Shown here: positions 3 to 34,152 of the stretch, one piece after another
Numbering within the stretch: the stretch's first letter is position 1
How the letters are laid out: every line of letters begins with the position of its first letter
NCBI GenBank assembly: GCA_023261815.1
Contig: JALNKA010000010.1
Coordinates: forward strand, 1-34,152
DNA: 34,152 bases
Source of the DNA: Candidatus Wolframiiraptor sinensis
GTDB lineage: Archaea; Thermoproteota; Nitrososphaeria_A; Caldarchaeales; Wolframiiraptoraceae
Reading direction: 5' to 3'
Program-made: the position numbers and the translations under genes
Notes under the pieces: model-generated
Databases searched by the model: none
The model's input: the letters and a program-made list of their open reading frames with translations, nothing else
What the model was told of the DNA's origin: nothing

Positions 3-623
3 GATTTCGGTGATGCCTATATCTTGTCGAGGATTCGTGATGAGGTGCCGAAGGCCTTCAGAGAAGTCACGCCTTTGGATGCCGTGTTCAAGCCGTTGCT
101 GATAAAGGAGAGGGCGCTGGCCAGGCAGCTGATGAGGCTGCAGCAGATGCTGGAGCTAGGCATAGACTTCGAGGATGAGATCAGGGATTGTGAGGAGAAA
201 TTGATGATTATTCGCGGGGAGATAGTCGAGAATGCTGTGGAGAAGATCCTGAGATTCGCGGATATCGCCAGGGAGCTGGAACTGAACGATAATAATATCA
301 ATGCGCTGTCGGCGCTGGCCGGGCTACTAATTTACTTGAGGTGGCCTTATGAGGTGTCATCATTTCATAGGGCTAAGAGGCTCCTAGGACTGTATAAGCC
401 GACGCGAGAGGAGGTGAGAAGGTTCGAGGAGAGAAGCGGAGAGAAATATAGAAAGCGTTACAGCGGCTATGCTAGGAGATACCTAGTCTTGCTGACGATT
501 GCCATATTGAGCAAAGAGAGGATTTCTAAGCCGAGGGCAAGGAATCAGAAGGAGGTGTTGAGGAAGCTACTGGGAATTTTGAAGACCTATAATGAGGCTA
601 TTGCGGGTGGAGGGGCAGGATAA
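3..623 (+). CDS. IS110/Tas-like RuvC(DEDD)-coiled-coil-Nop/Tnp_20-type protein, 5'-truncated by the window edge
   Basis: The frame is open from position 3 and reads DFGDAYILSRIRDEVPKAFREVTPLD..., i.e. the DxxDA motif of the IS110 RuvC domain. It continues through a helical/coiled-coil stretch to SFHRAKRLLGLYKP...ERSG...RYSGYARRYL, which resembles the IS110 Tnp_20 'F..A..L....GL.P....SG....R..L' region. It is paralogous to the ORF at 33730-34152 and is followed directly by the repeated ncRNA-like module. Confidence 0.72.
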   Translation, partial: DFGDAYILSRIRDEVPKAFREVTPLDAVFKPLLIKERALARQLMRLQQMLELGIDFEDEIRDCEEKLMIIRGEIVENAVEKILRFADIARELELNDNNINALSALAGLLIYLRWPYEVSSFHRAKRLLGLYKPTREEVRRFEERSGEKYRKRYSGYARRYLVLLTIAILSKERISKPRARNQKEVLRKLLGILKTYNEAIAGGGAG

Positions 624-748
624 AAGCCCTGATGAGGCCTGTGGTAAATTATTTGATGCTCCAACAAGGAGTGGTGGCCCGTTTGATGCAGGTGAAAGGG
701 CTGTCCAAATGCCCCCTCCCCCGACACCACCCCTCTTTTCCCTCTCTA
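619..748 (+). ncRNA. Putative guide RNA / element right end, copy 1 (directly downstream of the IS110-like ORF)
   Basis: Outer stem AGCCCT(625-630)/AGGGCT(697-702) with K-turn-like GATGA/GA, inner stem CCTG/CAGG, two 30-nt-spaced units GTGGT-aaattatt-TGATGC (641-659) and GTGGT-ggcccgtt-TGATGC (671-689) separated by the hairpin GCTCC-aacaa-GGAGT, and a pyrimidine-rich tail. Homologous to 3555-3660 and 9109-9240. Confidence 0.65.
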
Positions 749-758
749 AATCCAATCT

Positions 759-1832
759 CTAATCCTTAAATAATAATTTGGGGAGAAAGTTCGTGTTCTC
801 TATGATCGCGTCGGCCAAGCATCTCGTGAAAAACGCATAGGAGTACTTGTTCGTCAGCACGGCTGCTAGGTGCGCTTCGACCCCCCTCTCCCTCGCTTTC
901 AGGACTAGGAAGTAGTCTTCGCCGCCATCGCCGACGTAGAGCACGCGCTTCGCCCCGAGCTTCCTGCAACATTCCAGCAGGCCCGCGGGATTAGGCTTAT
1001 CCATCTCCCTCCTATTATCCCCAGTGAAGAGTATTGCATCCGAGTTGAAGTGATGGAGAACTGGGCTAAGGATCTTCTCGGCTTCCCAGCGGCCCTTGCC
1101 CGAGAGTATGGCGAGCCCGTTTGGCGCGAAGCGCTTAAGCGCTTCCAAGACCTCGAGCTCGACCATCAGCCTCTCATTATACAGGATCCCCGGGCCATCA
1201 TAGTATCTTGGATCCACTCCATGCTTTCTCTTTATCCCCTCGTATCCGAGATAAAGCTCGCTGAAGAGCGTCGTCATCACTCCCGAGCCGTATGGGAATA
1301 TCGGCCCGATGAGCTTCCTAAACTCTCTCAGCTTCTGCGGGGAGCACGCCCTCCTCTCCAGCAACGCCTCGACATCTTCTGGTGTCACATATTCTCCGAG
1401 ATGCTTAGCCGTGCTGGAGATGAGCCATCTGAGAGCATTACCTAAGGGCTTCGAGCTACTCCAGCCGTGCGAGATCTGCCCCATGTAGTGATGAAGTTCG
1501 ATCGGCTCCAGATCTTCTCTCAGCGGGTCGGGGCATCCCAGCTCCACGAATACCGCTTGAAGTATCACTGAGACTATGTTTCTGACATTGTTGAATCCAC
1601 CGAGCATCTTCAGTAGCTGGAAGGCCTCATCATAATCGCTCCCGACCACGCAATCTATTCCAAAGAGCTGGTCGAGGTATATTGCTGTTATGAGTTTTCC
1701 AACCAGCGGGAAGGATAATGATACGTCCACGATCGTCCCATCGCAGTCGAAGATTATCGCGTCAACTTCCCTCAGGGAGTTTAGCTTCTCCTCTAGCGCG
1801 AGAACCCCGCCATCCACGATGATGTAGCGCAT
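759..1832 (-). CDS. HAD-superfamily hydrolase (TIGR01548-like, large cap)
   Basis: Motif I FDCDGTIVD, motif II LSGK, DKPNPAGL and YVGDGGED motifs III/IV; 357 aa. Confidence 0.8.
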   Translation of the reverse strand: MRYIIVDGGVLALEEKLNSLREVDAIIFDCDGTIVDVSLSFPLVGKLITAIYLDQLFGIDCVVGSDYDEAFQLLKMLGGFNNVRNIVSVILQAVFVELGCPDPLREDLEPIELHHYMGQISHGWSSSKPLGNALRWLISSTAKHLGEYVTPEDVEALLERRACSPQKLREFRKLIGPIFPYGSGVMTTLFSELYLGYEGIKRKHGVDPRYYDGPGILYNERLMVELEVLEALKRFAPNGLAILSGKGRWEAEKILSPVLHHFNSDAILFTGDNRREMDKPNPAGLLECCRKLGAKRVLYVGDGGEDYFLVLKARERGVEAHLAAVLTNKYSYAFFTRCLADAIIENTNFLPKLLFKD

Positions 1833-1838
1833 GGATAT

Positions 1839-3506
1839 TCACCTTCGAAGCTTCTCGGCCAGCAGGCTTAGATCGAGCTCCATGGCAGCCGTAGGCATGC
1901 TCAGCTTCCAGCTTGTCAAGACCTCCGGGTGGATCTCACCGAAGAATCCCAGCACGCCCCCCCTCCACGCTATCTGAGCCGCCCTGCCCTCTATGAATGG
2001 CATTGAATCCAGCGGCTCAAGATCCCAGCCATCCACGTCGAGATTCCTCAAAACCTCCTCGGCAACGGACTTCATCTCAGAGTATGATGCCTCGGAGTGG
2101 GATGAAGCGGCGGCGAGCCTTAGCCTTCGAGCAGCCCTCTCCGGCCTAGATGAATCCGGGCAAATGACATCGCCTACCTCGAAAATCCTCTGCGGATACT
2201 GCGCCTTGACGTTTAGCGCGAGCGTCTTCATTAAACTCGGGAGGATCCATGTTCTGAGGATCGAGTACTCCTGTGAGACAGGGTTCTTGAGCTTGATATG
2301 CGAATGAGGTTGGACGCGCATCCTGACATATTCATCCTCGATGTTTGTAAGGGTAAAGTTCATGACCTCCGTGAAGCCGAGCCCGATCATTATCTCCCTG
2401 GCGAGATCCTCTAAGATCGTGTCCGAGTGAAGGCTGCCATAAGCAAGCACTTGAGGCTGAGCCGGCTCGAGATTACCATATCCTATGCCCATCGCCACGT
2501 CCTCTATCAAGTCGACCACGTGCATTATATCGGGCCTATAGGGAGGCGGAGTAACCTCTATCACCTCGCCGCGAGCTCTAGCATCATGCCTCATTCTCTG
2601 AAGAGCCCTGACTATATCTATACTTCTTAGCTCGAGTCCTAGGACCTCGCTTGCCTCGCTCCTCCTGAGCCTCCACTTCCTCTGCTTGTAGATGGGCGTC
2701 GAGATGACCTTATCCTGATACTTAACTTTGACGCGCTCAACCACGCCGCCCATATCCGCCATTGTCGTCGTCAGGATATTTATCGTGTGGATCACTGCCT
2801 TGAAATCCGTCCCCGTCACGTCTATGAATATGTCCGTGGTCTTCTCGCTGAGCTCGGTCAGCCTCGAGTTTATTATCGGCGGGAATGAGAGGACCCTGTT
2901 TAGGGAGTCGAGTATCAGCGGGTAGAATGGCTTTCCCCTGAGAATATGGGCGTACCGCAGCCCTTTCTCGTGCTTCTCCAGTATCTCGTCCAGCGTCATG
3001 GGCGAGTAGCCGCCCAATGGTATGAACTTGTACTCGTCGCCCCTCGCCGCGGCGTACTTGAACGGGGGCTTGACTGCCGAGTAGTCGTGAAGGCCTATCG
3101 CGACCTTGGCCCTATCCCTTCCGAGGATCCAGTGCAGGTCCTCCTGCATCGCTATCAGCTCCTCGAGCTCTTCAAGCCCCAGCCTTAGGCCCCTGACTAT
3201 AGCGGCCGCCACATAGGGCCTTACATCCCTCAGCCTAGGATCGACCTCAATGTACGTTCTAGCGGGCCTGAGCACGTACCTCGGCGCGCCGACGGATATT
3301 CCGAGAAGGCCCCTCGCCGCCCTCGCTATCCCAACCGAGCTCGAGAAATCCGGCCTATTCGGATTATACTCAACGCGGAAATAGTCCTCGCCAATCTCCT
3401 CTACGTCGAGTCCAAGATCATGTAAAAGGTTGGAGAGATTCTCATCGCTCAGCTCTCTTCCGAGAAGACTCCAGAAGCGCTGCTTCTTCACCGTTAGAGT
3501 CGGCAT
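1839..3506 (-). CDS. pheT: Phenylalanyl-tRNA synthetase beta subunit (archaeal type)
   Basis: MPTL start with upstream GGGGTGG SD; motifs EYNPNRPDF, RPYVAAAIVR, QEDLHW.LGRDR.KVAIGLHD, SFPPIINS, PPYRPDIMH..DLIEDVA, NP.S.EYSILRT.ILPSL, FIEGRAA, GEIHPEVL. Confidence 0.96.
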   Translation of the reverse strand: MPTLTVKKQRFWSLLGRELSDENLSNLLHDLGLDVEEIGEDYFRVEYNPNRPDFSSSVGIARAARGLLGISVGAPRYVLRPARTYIEVDPRLRDVRPYVAAAIVRGLRLGLEELEELIAMQEDLHWILGRDRAKVAIGLHDYSAVKPPFKYAAARGDEYKFIPLGGYSPMTLDEILEKHEKGLRYAHILRGKPFYPLILDSLNRVLSFPPIINSRLTELSEKTTDIFIDVTGTDFKAVIHTINILTTTMADMGGVVERVKVKYQDKVISTPIYKQRKWRLRRSEASEVLGLELRSIDIVRALQRMRHDARARGEVIEVTPPPYRPDIMHVVDLIEDVAMGIGYGNLEPAQPQVLAYGSLHSDTILEDLAREIMIGLGFTEVMNFTLTNIEDEYVRMRVQPHSHIKLKNPVSQEYSILRTWILPSLMKTLALNVKAQYPQRIFEVGDVICPDSSRPERAARRLRLAAASSHSEASYSEMKSVAEEVLRNLDVDGWDLEPLDSMPFIEGRAAQIAWRGGVLGFFGEIHPEVLTSWKLSMPTAAMELDLSLLAEKLRR

Positions 3507-3554
3507 TTTCCACCCCACGCCATCGAGATCCATTAAATGAACTTTTCGACTTAG

Positions 3555-3660
3555 CCCACATTTAATGCTCCAGCAAAAGAGTGATCATCTAATAATGGCG
3601 AGTGAAGGGCTGTCTAGATGCCCCTTCCCTGACACTACCCATCTTTTTCCCTCGAGTTTA
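3555..3660 (+). mobile_element. 5'-truncated solo copy (copy 2) of the guide-RNA/right-end module
   Basis: Aligns to 646-748 (TTTAATGCTCCA..AGAGTGAT..TGAAGGGCTGTCTAGATGCCCCTTCCCTGACACTACCC..TTTTTCCC). Segment CATCTAATA (3586-3594) is the exact reverse complement of the right flank TATTAGATG (3659-3667). It lies between the divergent pheT and trxA genes. Confidence 0.75.
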
Positions 3661-3688
3661 TTAGATGGCTACGATGTTTAAGCTCTCG

Positions 3689-4090
3689 ATGCCTGAGGAC
3701 TGGGAGCTCGAGAAAATCAAGTATGAGAAGATGAGGAGGCTCATGGGCAGGACTGAAGAGCCCATGAAATACTCGAGACCCGTCCACATAAGTGAGGAGG
3801 AATTCGACGAGTTCATCGGATCTCATGAGCTCGTTTTAGTGGATTTCTGGGCTGAGTGGTGTGGTCCCTGCCGGATGATAGCCCCGATCCTAGATGAAAT
3901 AGCCAGGGATTACGCTGGAAAGATCGTCGTCGCGAAGGTGGATGTTGATAGGAACCGGGGCCTCGCCATGAGATTCGGGATAATGAGCATACCCACGCTC
4001 ATCCTGTTCAAGAATGGTAAGCCCGTGGACATGATGATCGGCGCCAGGCCGAGGCCCGCGATAGAGGACATGATCAGGCGGCATCTCTAG
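3689..4090 (+). CDS. trxA: Thioredoxin
   Basis: VDFWAEWCGPC active site, IMSIPTL cis-Pro motif, archaeal N-terminal helix DWELEKIK. Start uncertain (3665, 3674 or 3689). Confidence 0.93.
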   Translation: MPEDWELEKIKYEKMRRLMGRTEEPMKYSRPVHISEEEFDEFIGSHELVLVDFWAEWCGPCRMIAPILDEIARDYAGKIVVAKVDVDRNRGLAMRFGIMSIPTLILFKNGKPVDMMIGARPRPAIEDMIRRHL

Positions 4091-4146
4091 GTCTCCGGGA
4101 AATCCATTTTTAGAGGCCTCAAGCCTATGAGGATTCTGATGAGAGC

Positions 4147-5721
4147 TTGGCTATTCCAGAGGAGCTGATCACGATCCTGGCAGCTGTCGGGATGTCTTGG
4201 GCAAGAATGACCATAGCCTTAATCATATCCATAGTCTTCTCCCTATGCGTCGGGATACCCGCCGCAATCAACAAGGCGGCGGAGAAGATCATAATCCCGA
4301 TCCTCGATATACTTCAGTCGATCCCGATCCTCGGCTTCTTCCCGATAGCATTATACGTCTTCATAATGATCCACCCGATAATCGGGCCCGAGCTGGCCGC
4401 GATCTTCCTGATATTCACAAGCCAGGTATGGAACATAGCATTCGGCGTCTATAAGGGGGTGGGGCTGATACCCCCGGAGCTTCGAGAAGCCTCAAGCGCC
4501 CTTGGGCTAAGCGCGTGGAAAAGGCTCACGAGCCTCTATATCCCGGCCGCCTTCCCCGGCATAGCAAGCAATCTTCCACCATCATGGGCCAATGGGCTAT
4601 ACTTTCTAGTGGCCTGCGAGATAATCACTGTGGGAGAGGCGGAGTGGAGTCTCTTCGGTATAGGGACTCTCTCCACGAACTACATACTGGCGGGGAGAGT
4701 GGCCGAGTTCGTGATGAGCATGGCCGCCGTTGTTGCAGCCGTGATACTCATGAACCTGCTAGTCTTCATCCCGGTCATGAGGCTTAGTGAGAGGTACAAG
4801 TTCGAGGAGAGAGCAGCTGAGATGCCAAGAGTCTGGATCGAGAGAGTCTCAAGCTGGTTGTCGCGAGTGGTTAAAAGAGTATCATTCGGCTTAAGCCCCA
4901 TGATCGGCTCATTCGAGCTGAGAATTCCCTCCAGAATAGGGAAAGGCCTGCTAATCGCCTCGCTATCCGCCGCCATCACTGCACTTCTCTGGCAAAACAT
5001 CTTCGGGAGAATTCTCACGGGGGCCACGCTAACCTGGGCACAAGACATCCTAGAGGGCTTTCTAAGGCTCGGAGTTATTGATCCGCTCGTGATGATAGGC
5101 TTCTCGCTCGCCCGAGTGTCGGCCGCCGCCGCCTTCGGCCTTCTCTGGACCATGCCGGTCGCGATCCTTATCTACGAGAATAAGGTGCTCGAGAAGATCC
5201 TGATACCGCCATTCCAGATCATAGCATCCTTCCCGGCGACGCTCATCATGCCATTGATCGCGAAGGCAATCATCGACTCGGGTCTCCCGCTGGAGCTGGG
5301 CGCATTCCTGATGATACTGCTCGGAACACAGTGGTATCTCCTATTCTTCCTGCTGGATGGTCTGAGGGGCATACCCTATGATGAGGAGGAGGTTTGCAAG
5401 GCCCTCGGGATGACTAGAATCCAGAAGCTCAGGCACCTCTATCTCCCGAGAATGCTTCCCTCGCTCATAATGGGCTGCCTCGTATGCTTTGGAGGCGGAT
5501 GGAACACCCTGGTAATAGCCGAGCGCGCTTTTCTCGGCGAGTTCACCTGGGATCTCGGAAGCCCGGGGATAGGGAGGATGATGAGCATAGCTGTGGAGAG
5601 CGGCGACGTCGCCCTGCTAATTGCCGCGACGATCTGGATGGCCGGCTTCATAGTCCTCCTGAATAGGCTCTTATGGAGGAGACTATACGAGAGGGCTGTG
5701 AGAATGGTTGGTGTTGCATGA
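4147..5721 (+). CDS. NitT/TauT-family ABC transporter permease (two fused BPD_transp_1 domains)
   Basis: LDILQSIPILGFFP and IFTSQVWN motifs; two EAA-like loops (ELREASSALGLS, EEEVCKALGMT); hydrophobic; upstream of an ABC ATPase. Confidence 0.9.
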   Translation: MAIPEELITILAAVGMSWARMTIALIISIVFSLCVGIPAAINKAAEKIIIPILDILQSIPILGFFPIALYVFIMIHPIIGPELAAIFLIFTSQVWNIAFGVYKGVGLIPPELREASSALGLSAWKRLTSLYIPAAFPGIASNLPPSWANGLYFLVACEIITVGEAEWSLFGIGTLSTNYILAGRVAEFVMSMAAVVAAVILMNLLVFIPVMRLSERYKFEERAAEMPRVWIERVSSWLSRVVKRVSFGLSPMIGSFELRIPSRIGKGLLIASLSAAITALLWQNIFGRILTGATLTWAQDILEGFLRLGVIDPLVMIGFSLARVSAAAAFGLLWTMPVAILIYENKVLEKILIPPFQIIASFPATLIMPLIAKAIIDSGLPLELGAFLMILLGTQWYLLFFLLDGLRGIPYDEEEVCKALGMTRIQKLRHLYLPRMLPSLIMGCLVCFGGGWNTLVIAERAFLGEFTWDLGSPGIGRMMSIAVESGDVALLIAATIWMAGFIVLLNRLLWRRLYERAVRMVGVA

Positions 5722-6497
5722 TGAGCGAGCCCGGCATCAGGGAGCCGATACTGGAGCTCAGGGATATAGTCTTCGGATACAAGCTGAGAAGCGGCGAGAA
5801 CGTCAAGATTTTCGACGGCCTTTCGATGAGCGTGAAGTACGCGGAGTTCGTTGGGATAGCCGGGCCCAGCGGATGCGGCAAAAGCACGCTGATCAGGATA
5901 ATGGCGGGCCTCATCAAGCCCGAGAAGGGAGAAGTCTTCTTCAGGGGCAAGCCCCTCCAGAAGCCCACATCTAGGATCGCGATAATGTTCCAGAGCCCCG
6001 CCCTCTTTCCATGGTACACAGTTCTTGAGAATGTAATGCTCGCGCTGATCCACGAGAAGAATCTAAGCGGGAATGATAAGATTGAGAGGGCTAAGGCGTT
6101 CTTGGACATGGTGGGCTTGACGGCCTTCGAGTCAGCTTACCCGGCGGAGCTGAGCGGCGGAATGAAGGCGAGAGTCGCCCTAGCCCGCGCACTGGTCTCG
6201 CACCCAGATCTCCTCCTCATGGATGAGCCATTCAGCCATCTTGATCCGCTGACGGCGATATCGCTGAGAAGGGAGGTGGAGTCCCTCTGGCTGAACCAGA
6301 GCATGCCGCCGAGCACCGTCGTGATGGTGAGCCATGATATAGAGGAGCTCGTTGAGCTATGCGACAGGATAATAGTCCTGACGAAGAGGCCGGCCAAGAT
6401 CGCCGGCGTCGTCGAAGTTGATCTCGAGAGACCTAGGTCGAGAAGAAGCCCGGAGTTCTATAGCTATGTCGACGAGGTCTACACCCTCCTCAGCTGA
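5718..6497 (+). CDS. NitT/TauT-family ABC transporter ATP-binding protein
   Basis: Walker A GPSGCGKST, LFPWYTV, signature LSGGMK, Walker B LLLMDEPF, H-loop VSHD. ATG overlaps the permease stop (ATGA). Confidence 0.93.
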   Translation: MMSEPGIREPILELRDIVFGYKLRSGENVKIFDGLSMSVKYAEFVGIAGPSGCGKSTLIRIMAGLIKPEKGEVFFRGKPLQKPTSRIAIMFQSPALFPWYTVLENVMLALIHEKNLSGNDKIERAKAFLDMVGLTAFESAYPAELSGGMKARVALARALVSHPDLLLMDEPFSHLDPLTAISLRREVESLWLNQSMPPSTVVMVSHDIEELVELCDRIIVLTKRPAKIAGVVEVDLERPRSRRSPEFYSYVDEVYTLLS

Positions 6498-6984
6498 TCT
6501 TCTTGACCTTGAAGGTCTTTTCCTCCCCATCATACTCGACGAGCTCGGTGTAGAGGAGCCATTCCAATAGCATTCTATGGATCTCATCCGGGTTCCTGTA
6601 CTCCTCGCTTAACCCCTTCACCTCCGATATTTCCTCGAAGAGCTCCTCGGCCGTGAATTCCTCCCTCTCTTCCACTAGCTTGAATATCGTCGCGAATGGC
6701 TCAACGTTCCTCAGCGCATCTCTCAGAATTAGCTTCCTCTGATCCGATCTAGCCCTCACGAACTCCCTGCCGAGCTCCGTAAGAGCTATGTCACCGTCCT
6801 CCACCTTCACGAGACCCAGGGCTTCCGCGACATCTATCACAGGCAGAAGATCATCAACGTCGCTCTGCAAGTTTATCGCTATTCGCGCTATATCCGCTCT
6901 GCCTCCGTGATCGAAAATCACGTTGATTATTCCCGTGATCATCTCAGGCGTTACAGAGGAGGAAATTTTAGGCCTATTACTCAT
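6490..6984 (-). CDS. Stand-alone AAA-associated C-terminal (winged-helix-like) domain of NitT/TauT ATPases
   Basis: HGGRADI..IA..LQ.DVDDLLPVIDVAEALGLVKVEDGDIALTELGREF pattern typical of AAA_assoc_C; convergent with the cognate ATPase. Confidence 0.8.
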   Translation of the reverse strand: MSNRPKISSSVTPEMITGIINVIFDHGGRADIARIAINLQSDVDDLLPVIDVAEALGLVKVEDGDIALTELGREFVRARSDQRKLILRDALRNVEPFATIFKLVEEREEFTAEELFEEISEVKGLSEEYRNPDEIHRMLLEWLLYTELVEYDGEEKTFKVKKIS

Positions 6985-7045
6985 CTACCACCTTCCTTGT
7001 AGAGTATGTGAAGGCCCATGAGATAAAGGTTTTCCCCGCATCTTT

Positions 7046-8215
7046 TCAAACTGTGGATTCGATGCACCTCAAAACTCTTGAGCATATCTGCTCTATCGGA
7101 TTCAACGTCATGTGAAGTCTTCTGTACTCCTCCGCGCTCTCGCGGAAGGATTCCCCCGACAATATTCTTCTTATCGCCGATCTGAGCGCCTCGAGCGATA
7201 GCTGGTGCTGCTGCAATATTATGCCTGCTCCGGATTCTGCCACTGATAGCGCGTTGCCGAGTTGCTCTCCGTGCGCCGGTATTGGTATCATTATCACTGG
7301 CTTTCCCATCGCGAGAGCTTTTGCCAGAGTAGTCTGGCCAGCCCTGCAGATGACTAAGTCAGAGATCGCGAATATCTTCATCGGATCATCGATCCAGTGA
7401 TAAACTCTTGCGCGCCTGGTAATGTGCTCGGGCTTATCGCCGCCGAGGGTCGCTATCACCTGATACTCTTCCGCTATCTCGTCAAGGATCGGTAGTATGA
7501 GGTTCGTCAGAATCTTTCTCTCGTAAGCCGGCCCGCTCGCGTGATAGAAGATTATCGGGCCGCCATTCGGGTCCAAGCCGAATCTCCCGCAGACCTCATC
7601 TCTCCGCGGGTTCTCCTCCAGCCTCTCAATTACAGGCCCTATAAAGCTCGTCTTTTCTAGGAGATTATCCGGGATAACCAGGTTCCATTTCGAGATCGTG
7701 TATGGTGGGGGATAATCCGCTATCAGGATCTCGTCGCTGAGACCCCATATCTTTCCCGGCGCGTAGCAGGCGGCCTCGAGAAGCTCTATCAGCCTCCGAT
7801 ATCTCGGGTACTCGATCCTGATATTAAACTGGTTTAGTATAGTGAGCGTCGGCTTGCCGAGAAGTTTTCCGGCCAGGGTTGTGGAAGCCCTTGAATCAGA
7901 TAAGACTAGGCTCGCGCCCTCCGCATAGCCCAGCTCACACGAGACCTGCTCCATGAACCTGAGGGGCAGAAATATGTTCCGGAAGATCGTCATCTTTATG
8001 CTGACCTTGCCATCGGGGAGCACCCCGTAAGATATCGGCGGGGCTTGCAGCGCATCCGCTCCCACGGATCTCAGGTATCTTAGGCCATCACCATAAGATG
8101 AGACAGTCACGGCGAGACCGCGCCTCTCAAGCTCGCGTATTATGATCGCTGATCTCGCCGCGTGTCCGTAGCCTATGCCGCATACTCCGAAGTGTATTCT
8201 ATGAGAGGACGTCAT
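7046..8215 (-). CDS. GT-B glycosyltransferase (MurG/GT28-like, MJ1255 family)
   Basis: N-terminal CGIGYGHAARS; C-terminal SDLVICRAGQTTL..AL..GKPVI.IP...HGEQLGNA. Confidence 0.85.
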   Translation of the reverse strand: MTSSHRIHFGVCGIGYGHAARSAIIIRELERRGLAVTVSSYGDGLRYLRSVGADALQAPPISYGVLPDGKVSIKMTIFRNIFLPLRFMEQVSCELGYAEGASLVLSDSRASTTLAGKLLGKPTLTILNQFNIRIEYPRYRRLIELLEAACYAPGKIWGLSDEILIADYPPPYTISKWNLVIPDNLLEKTSFIGPVIERLEENPRRDEVCGRFGLDPNGGPIIFYHASGPAYERKILTNLILPILDEIAEEYQVIATLGGDKPEHITRRARVYHWIDDPMKIFAISDLVICRAGQTTLAKALAMGKPVIMIPIPAHGEQLGNALSVAESGAGIILQQHQLSLEALRSAIRRILSGESFRESAEEYRRLHMTLNPIEQICSRVLRCIESTV

Positions 8216-8239
8216 CCGCGTAGCTCCACCTGGGCACCC

Positions 8240-8854
8240 TTAATGCCTCTCGAGCTTTCTCTCGATTACCTTACCTCTAGGAGATTCTTCCTCGAACACT
8301 TGCGCGGAGAATCTGTATAGCTTCATCTTTCCGGTGAGCCAGTAGGTGGGCGCGAGACCGGCCTTGAGGCAGAGGTGCATGAGATATTCCTCCGGCGTCC
8401 AGCCATACTCGACGGGAACCTGCGGCAGGAGGAGGCCGCTGTAAACTCCCGCCTCGATTATCAGCCCATCCTCCCCGATCCTTATCGTGCTCGGAAGCTC
8501 CTTTGGATCCGTGAACTTTATCTCCTCGGGAGGGGTCAGCGCGCTGACCTCAACTATTATGCTCGACATCTCATCGAGGGAGACCGGCGGGAACCTTGGA
8601 TCCTCGGTCGCGGACGCTATCGCGGCTCTCATCGCCGCCTCTATCAACGGGTACTCGGGCAGCGGAATCCCTATACAGCCCCTCAACTCCTTCTCGGGAT
8701 GCGTGTAGAGCGTCACGAAGACTCCCTGCCTCCTCCTAAGCCTCTCCGGAGCATCCTCAGGCGGAACGGGCGTCTTCCCGGAAAGATAAACTTCTATGGT
8801 CTTTCTCGCAAGCTTGACGAGATAAGCGCCCTCACTCAAGCTAAGCCTCTCCAT
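8240..8854 (-). CDS. AMMECR1-domain protein (TIGR00296 family)
   Basis: GVFVTL, LRGCIG, EDPRFPPV, SGLLLPQVPVEYGW, LCLKAGL motifs. Confidence 0.93.
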   Translation of the reverse strand: MERLSLSEGAYLVKLARKTIEVYLSGKTPVPPEDAPERLRRRQGVFVTLYTHPEKELRGCIGIPLPEYPLIEAAMRAAIASATEDPRFPPVSLDEMSSIIVEVSALTPPEEIKFTDPKELPSTIRIGEDGLIIEAGVYSGLLLPQVPVEYGWTPEEYLMHLCLKAGLAPTYWLTGKMKLYRFSAQVFEEESPRGKVIERKLERH

Positions 8855-8911
8855 ATTCGCCGAGATAAACCTCCTCCTGCATATTTATGTATAGTCTGAT
8901 CACGAAAAAAG

Positions 8912-9108
8912 ACTATAGCTCCCCCACAGACCGCCAGATCGTTCTCGATCTTCCTTAGAATCTTCAAGCTCATGGAGACCCCCTCCGGCTCCTTGATCAA
9001 GTAATGCATCTTGGCGGCGGCCATTTCCCCCTCCTCAGTCACCTCCACGAGCCTCTTGATGAAGTGATATTCCCTCTGGCGCTTCTTCAATATCCCTTCA
9101 ACCACCCC
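8912..9108 (-). pseudogene. Fragment of an unidentified protein-coding gene carried inside the non-autonomous element
   Basis: The minus-strand frame reads GVVEGILKKRQREYHFIKRLVEVTEEGE...LKILRKIENDLAVCGG with gene-like charged composition. Its 5' end runs into the RNA module with no credible start; no family recognised. Confidence 0.35.
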
Positions 9109-9240
9109 GATAAAAGCCCTGATGGGGGCTGTGGTCACAATTTTAATGCTCCAATATAGGGAGTGGTTGCATATTTAGTGCAGGGCTGGGCTGTCCAAAT
9201 GTTCCCTCCCCTTCTTCACACCCTCTTTTCCCTTTTCTTA
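9109..9240 (+). ncRNA. Putative guide RNA / right end, copy 3
   Basis: GATAAAAGCCCTGATG start identical to 619-634; units GTGGT-cacaattt-TAATGC (9131-9149) and GTGGT-tgcatatt-TAGTGC (9163-9181) around the GCTCC/GGAGT hairpin; GGGCTGTCCAAATG and CCCTCTTTTCCC tail conserved. Confidence 0.7.
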
Positions 9241-9257
9241 AAATTGTGCGAGCGCCG

Positions 9258-32924: not shown

Positions 32925-33478
32925 CACCTCAGCTGAGCATCTATCAAAGACCTCGCTATAAAAGGGTTACAGCCTCCGAGAAATGCTCACCCCATACCTG
33001 CTTGTAGTAGACTATGTTCCTCGGAGGGAGGATGCATCATCCCCTTTTGTGGCGAATGAAGGCGGGCTCCACGCTTAGGCCGACTAGGCTCAAGCTCTCG
33101 AGGCATCCACGTCCTTTAAGGCTTCCACCTCCGCTCTAATTCTCTCCGGCATTCGGGGGCAATACTTTCAACCATGTTTATACACGTATCTTCTCAGAGT
33201 GCTTAAATATAAACTCAAAACGATCTATTGTAAATGCTCGACGTTTATTCGACCACCACTTCGCCGCCACCAGCTTCTATTAACAAAAATATCAGATCGT
33301 TTAGACTCATCCTCCTCCACTATTCTCTCATCTTTGACGTTACATGGATGCTTTTATCCTAGGCTCCTCCTCAGCTCGATCATTATCCCATGTGAGGCTA
33401 TCCGCGTAAGCCATTCATCTCCAGTCCATGAAACCTTATAATCGCGGTTATGGTTGATGGGTTTTTTAGGGTGGTGTT

Positions 33479-33724
33479 ATGGGCGAGGTCGTGGAGGGCG
33501 TGAGGCTCATAAATCTGACTCCCCACGAGATAACCATTTACATGGATCGAGGCGCGGTATCCATACCCCCCAGCGGCCTGGTCGCCGGGGTCTCGGTTAC
33601 CAGCATTGATATACCCATCAACCCCTCAACCGCGTGGGGTATGGTGGGGTCGAGGAGGAGGGCTTTGAGGATGCTGGCGAGGATGGCCGGCGGGATGGGA
33701 GCCGAGCTTATGAGCGGAAAGTGA
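33479..33724 (+). pseudogene. Truncated virus/plasmid-type hypothetical protein (LINLTPH...IPPSG motif)
   Basis: VRLINLTPHEITIY....VSIPPSGLVA motif, recalled from phage hypothetical proteins; similarity is lost after about 45 aa; immediately upstream of the IS110-like gene. Confidence 0.45.
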
Positions 33725-33729
33725 TCGAT

Positions 33730-34152
33730 ATGGTCAGGAGGGTTTATGTGGATACGGCATGGAAATCGAAGCTCCATACATGCTATGACCCGGCTGAGGA
33801 CGGGTTTTTTGAGGTCGAGGATCTCGCTGAGCTCGCCGGAAGATATGATGAGGTTTACATTGATTGCGCGCTTTTCCCGAATATGTGGCCTCAGCTGAAG
33901 GCGTTGATAAACGATGGCGCGAGGGTCTTCTACTTCGCGTGGCCTTGGAAGTGGAAGAGGCTACGCGAGAGATATGCCGACGATTTGAAGAGGAAGTTTT
34001 GGGAAGTGGAAGACGGATTACGGCGACGCATACGTTTTGTCGAGGATTCATGGTATGCCAAAGGCCTTTGCGGAAGTCACGCCCCTCGACGTGGAGTTCA
34101 AGCCATTGCTGATGAGGGAGAGGAGGGTGGTTAAGATCCTGAACGAGTTATA
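33730..34152 (+). pseudogene. Second IS110/Tas-like RuvC(DEDD) gene, N-terminal part, +1 frameshift near 33997-34000, cut by the window end
   Basis: MVRRVYVDTAWKSKLHTCY...EVYIDCA..., then after the TTTT slip GKWKTDYGDAYVLSRIHGMPKAFAEVTPLDVEFKPLLMRER, which aligns with DFGDAYILSRIRDEVPKAFREVTPLDAVFKPLLIKER at 3-113. Confidence 0.75.

Follow-up and report, generated by a model that had tools for sequence, protein, structure and literature searches.

Element copies in the window

The window analysed here, the whole 34,152-nucleotide (nt) stretch of contig JALNKA010000010.1, is contig C14 of the genome of Candidatus Wolframiiraptor sinensis (label G000; 1.18 Mb, 92% complete, 87% coding, 54% G+C). 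It contains the remains of several copies of a small mobile element, found in hot-spring archaea, that occurs 19 times in this genome and that encodes a protein of approximately 300 amino acids (aa) with a RuvC/coiled-coil/Nop organization, followed by an RNA folding into a single long hairpin whose one internal loop carries two 9-nt guides. Each copy has its own guides, and each flank-matched copy lies exactly between two 9-nt halves that fit them, with a core of 2–4 nt (mostly TTA or TA). Most of the sites occupied are archaeal TATA boxes. Gene starts used here are the calls of a simple hexamer-model gene caller (1,286 genes) and not mapped transcription start sites; archaeal TATA spacing and the definitions of K-turn and H/ACA RNAs are general background, while names such as pheT, TruD and rpoH, which lack a Pfam call, are presumed.

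Upstream of the thioredoxin gene trx (3689..4090, plus strand; PF00085), a left target half (3555..3563, plus strand; CCCACATTT) is followed by a 96-nt remnant of copy 2 (3564..3659, plus strand), consisting of the loop hairpin, guide 2 at 3585–3593 and the 3' arm, and then by the right target half (3660..3668, plus strand; ATTAGATGG), which is the trx TATA box and matches guide 2 at 8/9 positions. Copy 2 is truncated exactly at guide 1, with which the left half is identical and fused, so that CCCACATTT serves as both flank and guide. The core lies 29 nt from the ATG at 3689, a start conserved in 12/12 aligned congener loci, and the box TTTATTA[AG]A is likewise kept in 12/12. An empty allele was found in three of four runs as a joint (3560->3657) that skips 96 nt and shares a core of 4 nt. 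The minus-strand gene that we take to be pheT has its own conserved TATA-like box (3533..3541, minus strand; TATA at 3533–3538), which is not a target, approximately 29 nt before its conserved start at 3506; the box at the insertion site therefore serves trx.

Before the AMMECR1 gene (8240..8854, minus strand; PF01871) lies copy 3 (8887..9239, plus strand), an internally deleted copy of 353 nt made up of a left arm and an RNA remnant from about 9107. Its left target half (8878..8886, plus strand; TGCATATTT) equals guide 2 (9168–9176) and, read on the minus strand, is the 3' half of the AMMECR1 TATA box, while its right target half (9240..9248, plus strand; AAAATTGTG) is the reverse complement of guide 1 (9136–9144). 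The match to both guides is perfect and the core is 32 nt from the start at 8854. The empty allele (joint 8884->9238, 353 nt skipped, shared core of 3 nt) was seen in two of four runs, with a loose end in a third. The box reads TATTTA in 9/10 aligned congener loci and CCTTAAAAA in the tenth. The insert had no coverage in RNA run X18, the contigs of which are unable to show transcription starts. The trx and AMMECR1 loci found in congeners are all empty; the outer guide-matching bases vary there and the TATA stays.

At the beginning of the window lies copy 1, represented by the 3' part of its nuclease gene (3..623, plus strand; fold taken from the intact paralogue) and its guide RNA (604..750, plus strand; fold z -2.30), a long hairpin with a K-turn-like loop, guides at 646–654 (guide 1) and 676–684 (guide 2) and a T-rich tail. 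The left arm and the 5' part of the gene are either on contig C16 or within an assembly gap. The right target half (768..779, plus strand) matches at 7/9 positions in register, and 3 extra nt preserve the reading frame of a HAD gene. The left flank, GGCCCGTTT, which the initial annotation could only predict, is present in locus L038 and on C16; a join between contigs C2 and C14 was rejected, as L038 ties copy 1 to C16. The target, which overlaps the final HAD codons, precedes a conserved hairpin RNA ending in ACA by 25 nt, and 768..779 on the minus strand is part of the TATA box of that RNA, which is located on C16. Copy 1 has replaced the final HAD codons (759–779), the element tail giving a new stop. 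This hairpin RNA, ending in ACA or AUA, occurs downstream of the HAD gene in 9/14 genus genomes searched; in locus L162 (292–370) and on C16 (approximately 441–520) it is without annotation and has a K-turn-like loop. Presumably it is an H/ACA-like pseudouridylation guide, and there were no Rfam matches at E 0.5 in nine loci, these including the guide RNAs as well as the hairpin-ACA RNA.

The initial annotation had interpreted the three reconstructed targets as TATA boxes, and their conservation in congeners together with the distances at trx and AMMECR1 bears this out; five of the six window guides do end in TT, as it had also noted.

A further copy begins near the end of the window, where a left target half (33159..33167, plus strand) that fits guide 2 of the C4:36655 copy precedes a left arm (33168..34152, plus strand) of captured DNA and a frameshifted 5' part of the nuclease gene, running on to contig C18. 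Relative to locus L036, the left arms of this copy (33159–34152) and of the one at C4:36496–37200 look swapped, through either a rearrangement between copies or an assembly chimera. A small open reading frame (33479–33724) with an NLTPH motif and no Pfam match is found in the left arm of several copies.

The candidate nuclease and its guide RNA

The intact copy on contig C12 encodes a protein of 303 aa, for which a structure was predicted with a predicted local distance difference test (pLDDT) score of 91.7. Pfam and PDB sequence searches returned nothing significant, and the protein was placed by fold searches. The closest fold found with a structural aligner was TasR (9mty; Z 16.4, 257 residues aligned, root-mean-square deviation 4.1), ahead of the IS110 recombinase ISCro4 (9t56; Z 14.0), while Foldseek ranked IS621 (8wt9), ISCro4 and TasR alike (E 2e-6 to 5e-6). 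A match to the Nop fold of 1nt2 (Z 7.2) was within background. The Pfam IS110 models gave no match above cut-off, the best being reached by 3/54 family members at E 0.024. As in TIGR-Tas proteins, a Nop domain is combined with an N-terminal RuvC domain; as in IS110, the DEDD/RuvC domain has an acidic tetrad (D8, D45, D96 and D99), which is invariant across 54 sequences. The catalytic serine of IS110 is taken to lie in the C-terminal loop after GLxP. Across the 54 sequences there is no conserved serine in the loop after GLYK, which is about five residues long and serine-free in many homologues. Homologues are labelled Nitrososphaerota, Ca. Wolframiiraptor and Ca. Geocrenenecus, which makes the host one of Caldarchaeales type. 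A profile search recovered 138 representatives at E <=0.001, and a scan of viral contigs found no relative. The protein is a compact, thermophilic candidate nuclease. In front of the C12 copy, the only intact one in the genome, and of L033/L035 lies repetitive G+C-rich DNA (L001:1–660, L033:1–1100) in place of the usual arm; the C12 guides have no match in the nearby flanks.

The consensus fold of the guide RNA, derived from 18 sequences, has 31 pairs, of which six show two-sided change. A CUGAUGA motif was considered as a possible hammerhead and rejected on inspection, the consensus fold pairing it as an internal loop. In type A RNAs a canonical-looking K-turn is present (626–634 and 695–700 of the window), with a 3-nt RAU bulge and tandem GA/GA pairs, some copies having AAU-GA; it suggests that L7Ae binds here and that there is a connection with box C/D RNAs. 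On inspection, no such loop was seen in RNAs of types B and C. The copy at C13:5330–5370 has an enlarged loop with internal duplications between the guides, and its guide 2 is still a perfect match to its flank.

Of the known systems, TIGR-TasR (PMC12045711) is similar in its RuvC/coiled-coil/Nop fold and in a stem-loop RNA whose two spacers of approximately 9 nt each address one of the two strands of a contiguous target. The dual spacers of the element fall within the 8–12 nt of TIGR guides, one per target strand, and a flank resembling a protospacer adjacent motif was not seen. Unlike a TIGR array, the element has a single guide unit (19 genome copies and 13 type A loci), its guides match its own insertion site, and it is multi-copy and polymorphic in cellular chromosomes. 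The TIGRFinder box motif was found in 0/38 guides on either strand (19/19 RNAs without it); a looser URR-U..U-R pattern does occur.

The IS110/IS1111 bridge-RNA recombinases have the same fold; there too the RNA follows the gene, the insertion point is a short core flanked by halves that the guides match, and both empty alleles and non-autonomous derivatives occur. They differ from the element, in which no second (donor) loop was found beside the single loop downstream of the gene, no ends are conserved (they are unrelated between copies, the left arms being judged by eye), the catalytic serine is missing, guides occur in either order relative to the element and guides differ in every copy. 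TnpB with its omega-RNA, from IS200/IS605, reportedly provides the precedent for homing, being an RNA-guided RuvC nuclease that targets the empty site of its own element. Its fold and RNA are different; in the element the guides are internal and not read from the flank, and no TnpA was seen in the arms. Box C/D ribonucleoproteins (Nop5, L7Ae) resemble the element in the Nop fold (a match within background), the dual-guide hairpin and the K-turn-like loop of type A, and differ from it in that the predicted target is DNA, the RuvC domain is intact, the element is mobile and types B and C are without that loop. The element would appear to act as a self-targeting TasR with IS110-like junctions, outside both the array and box features of TIGR and the serine and donor loop of IS110. 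In the literature, no description was found of TATA-targeting elements or of single-loop self-targeting Tas/IS110 systems, though the TIGR supplementary tables and TIGRSafari could list these proteins.

Promoter distance across the family

Guides match the flanks in 16/19 genome copies, 10 on both sides and six on one; the three without a flank match (C12, C33:23901 and C9:196307) were excluded, as were L034, the flanks of which are absent from G000, and L036, L037, L038 and L105, which are genome copies again. A further eight elements, taken from metagenome contigs, could be placed at sites that are empty in G000. A site was scored as being at promoter distance where an outward protein start lies 25–45 nt from the core, and the null was the share of cores in 20–300 nt spacers at that distance. 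Over the whole genome, upstream A+T and TATA-like words peak approximately 27–42 nt before called starts.

Among the two-sided sites, 14/18 are at promoter distance (the trx start being set by conservation), and the misses are copy 1 (an RNA promoter), L032 (70 nt), L033 (no start; C|T core) and L040 (48 nt). Two of the six one-sided copies have a start at 32 nt. For three others, the unseen side was predicted and then sought in relatives: this prediction held for C25, with a start at 26–30 nt in 7/7, and for C13, with a start at 28–36 nt in 3/3 informative loci. The C9 copy was scored as a miss. In total 18/24 assessable sites are at promoter distance (19 when the hairpin-ACA RNA is counted), compared to null shares of 27% for TA, 36% for cores with at least five A/T, 41% for WWTAWW and 43% for TTAA (p 2e-6 to 1.6e-3). 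In the strictest test, made within spacers, 14 of 18 sites were seen at this distance against 7.4 expected for TA cores (p 3e-4) and 10.3 for AT-rich cores (p 0.02); a narrow window of 26–36 nt holds 9/18 (p 0.001–0.056). As in archaeal TATA elements generally, an AT-rich box about 25–35 nt before the start is kept in relatives. The share of cores at promoter distance therefore exceeds that of TA-type cores, and the enrichment at promoters, in line with the initial annotation, is genuine, with a good part of it due to AT content and intergenic location.

A distant subfamily, counted after excluding loci without a guide match or an open reading frame hit, has 4/14 half-sites 28–35 nt before a protein start (null 7–13%) and one further half-site 29 nt before a tRNA-Thr. 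In another subfamily the match is to tRNA anticodon loops, likewise conserved sites. In L207, L208 and L209 (genome G034), members of a distant subfamily, RNA segments of 10–11 nt match tRNA-like anticodon arms 270–380 nt downstream, so that relatives may target tRNA genes.

Over 16 gene-facing junctions the mean promoter-motif score is 6.4 when filled and 6.9 when empty (Wilcoxon p 0.50), where the median of AT-rich intergenic cores is 4.8. Element ends usually rebuild a TATA-like sequence, in line with the earlier proposal for trx, where the GTTT at the end of the remnant restores TTTATTA. The scores at trx (4.5 -> 2.7, TTTATTA kept and upstream bases altered) and at AMMECR1 (5.6 -> 3.4) do drop on filling. 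Promoter capture by the element was rejected, since either end can face the gene (six 5'-end and ten 3'-end junctions).

Guides, sites and the nature of the element

The two guides are largely free in sequence at positions 1–6, with T at position 8 in 52/60 and at position 9 in 59/60; in L033 position 9 follows a change in the target, the C|T core being matched by its guides. Sister copies whose genes are 94% and 90% identical, and whose loop hairpins are in some cases the same, have only 3–6 of 14 guide positions in common, and guide sharing between elements is close to chance (5 pairs at >=6/7 against 3.7 expected). For a random guide pair, about 0.03 sites within two mismatches are expected in this genome. 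Since chance sites are so few and guides are not shared beyond chance, it is unlikely that pre-existing guides chose the sites; the guides were probably set at or after insertion, following the site rather than choosing it. The causal direction probably differs from that of the initial annotation. Stepwise guide drift in type A is unsupported, there being neither a correlation of guide similarity with scaffold identity (rho -0.05, p 0.26) nor excess sharing. In the copies at window position 3555 and at C4:24686 the truncation falls exactly at guide 1, as would be expected from recombination between a flank and an identical guide. The ends are mosaic, with AT-rich tails containing repeated TTA-led segments (e.g., C4:24780–24825), and the arms carry host gene fragments and a tRNA fragment (e.g., L084:1780–3000); these tails and arms may be a record of earlier sites.

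Taking these features together, we give about an even chance to the element being a homing-type selfish RNA-guided element of Caldarchaeales-type archaea, retained at TATA boxes that are conserved yet splittable. The protein–RNA complex would cut the empty allele in the manner of TasR, and repair from the filled allele would copy or restore the element, as in the homing of TnpB. TATA boxes would accumulate as intergenic sites whose central guide positions are hard for the host to change, and could be split without loss, the element end supplying the missing half. The weakest step would be the entry into new sites at an AT-rich open core that the guides match poorly or not at all, after which the guides would be rewritten or quickly selected to fit the new flanks. 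More tentatively, the element could program itself: entry at the TATA box would be cued by host transcription or DNA opening, both guides would be rewritten from the flanks and the TasR-like nuclease would hold the site. TasR itself is reported to be sensitive to mismatches near the cut (PMC12045711).

A number of observations weigh against a homing element of this kind. Insertion at the exact centre with a 2–4 nt core is recombinase-crossover-like and unlike the 8-nt overhang given for TasR (PMC12045711), empty and filled alleles coexist within the same runs, and inspection of 18 left arms by eye revealed no mobilising enzyme. The type B pair L063/L086 has 10/14 guide positions in common and different right flanks, which fits near-match hopping better than rewriting; one type A pair has a whole guide in common at different sites, and gene conversion among copies may have raised the scaffold identity. 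An empty site in G000 is a perfect 18/18 match to the guides of L033, an RNA itself absent from G000. The prediction for the unseen side of C33b failed, a conserved box being present there with the start 54–62 nt away. Hand counts for the other types gave a weaker signal (type B, 4/24 half-sites, p ~0.04; type C, 2/7, p ~0.03; null 4–6%), and several type B targets are inside called coding sequence. These counts exclude half-sites with <200 nt of flank, duplicate elements, 17 loci whose RNA was unparsed by the patterns and one mis-parsed locus.

It is also conceivable, though rather unlikely, that the protein is a serine-less IS110-like recombinase in which cutting and joining at the TA core are the work of the RuvC domains by themselves. 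Its one RNA would mark the current site for excision, and insertion would be directed to TATA DNA bent or opened by TBP/TFB, so that the promoter bias would arise at insertion. The exact central insertion with its shared core, the equal Foldseek placement of IS621, ISCro4 and TasR, the variable AT-rich tails and arms, which resemble captured flanks, and the many different sites per genome would all suit such an enzyme, and IS110 is reported to use half-match and target-loop-only routes (10.64898/2026.08.31.748434; 10.1101/2025.10.25.684509). It would have to act without a catalytic serine, a donor loop or conserved donor ends, and the structural aligner puts TasR over ISCro4.

Composition and survival without any preference for promoters, whereby an AT-rich TA core is needed, genic insertions are purged and the remaining AT-rich intergenic cores are often TATA boxes, we regard as improbable. 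In its favour, 41–43% of WWTAWW and TTAA cores in short spacers lie at promoter distance regardless, the within-spacer expectation is already 10.3/18, the narrow-window p is ~0.05 against these core classes and the signal in types B and C is weak. The observed 18/24 exceeds even 43% (p 0.0016), however, and survival should by itself deplete promoter sites rather than enrich them; the sole convergent-spacer site turned out to be an RNA promoter, and the core is variable, the C|T core of L033 fitting its guides. That solo RNAs and protein act as guided promoter binders regulating host genes, as the initial annotation had suggested, is very improbable: nuclease-dead TasR and TasA are reported to repress transcription (10.64898/2026.09.09.750476) and solo RNAs are many per genome, but the 92%-complete genome has an intact target within two mismatches for 0/19 guide pairs, the acidic tetrad is invariant, both solo RNAs of the window have lost the 5' arm and are unfolded (z -0.09 and +0.93), and filled and empty alleles are polymorphic with congeners empty.

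Next to TIGR arrays and IS110 bridge recombinases, the element adds a third life-style to the RNA-guided family with Nop domains, in which a mobile element carries one self-targeting guide unit. The data point to a way in which selfish DNA could make promoters its landing places, and no earlier description of this was found. How such guides gain new sequences, for which no answer was found in the literature, becomes testable. The guides also serve as core-promoter markers in uncultured archaea, having led to the promoter of the H/ACA-like RNA and predicted the starts at two of three unseen flanks. If the element does program itself, the TIGR/IS110 superfamily would have a natural means of acquiring guides, and the element would be one specialised for core promoters.

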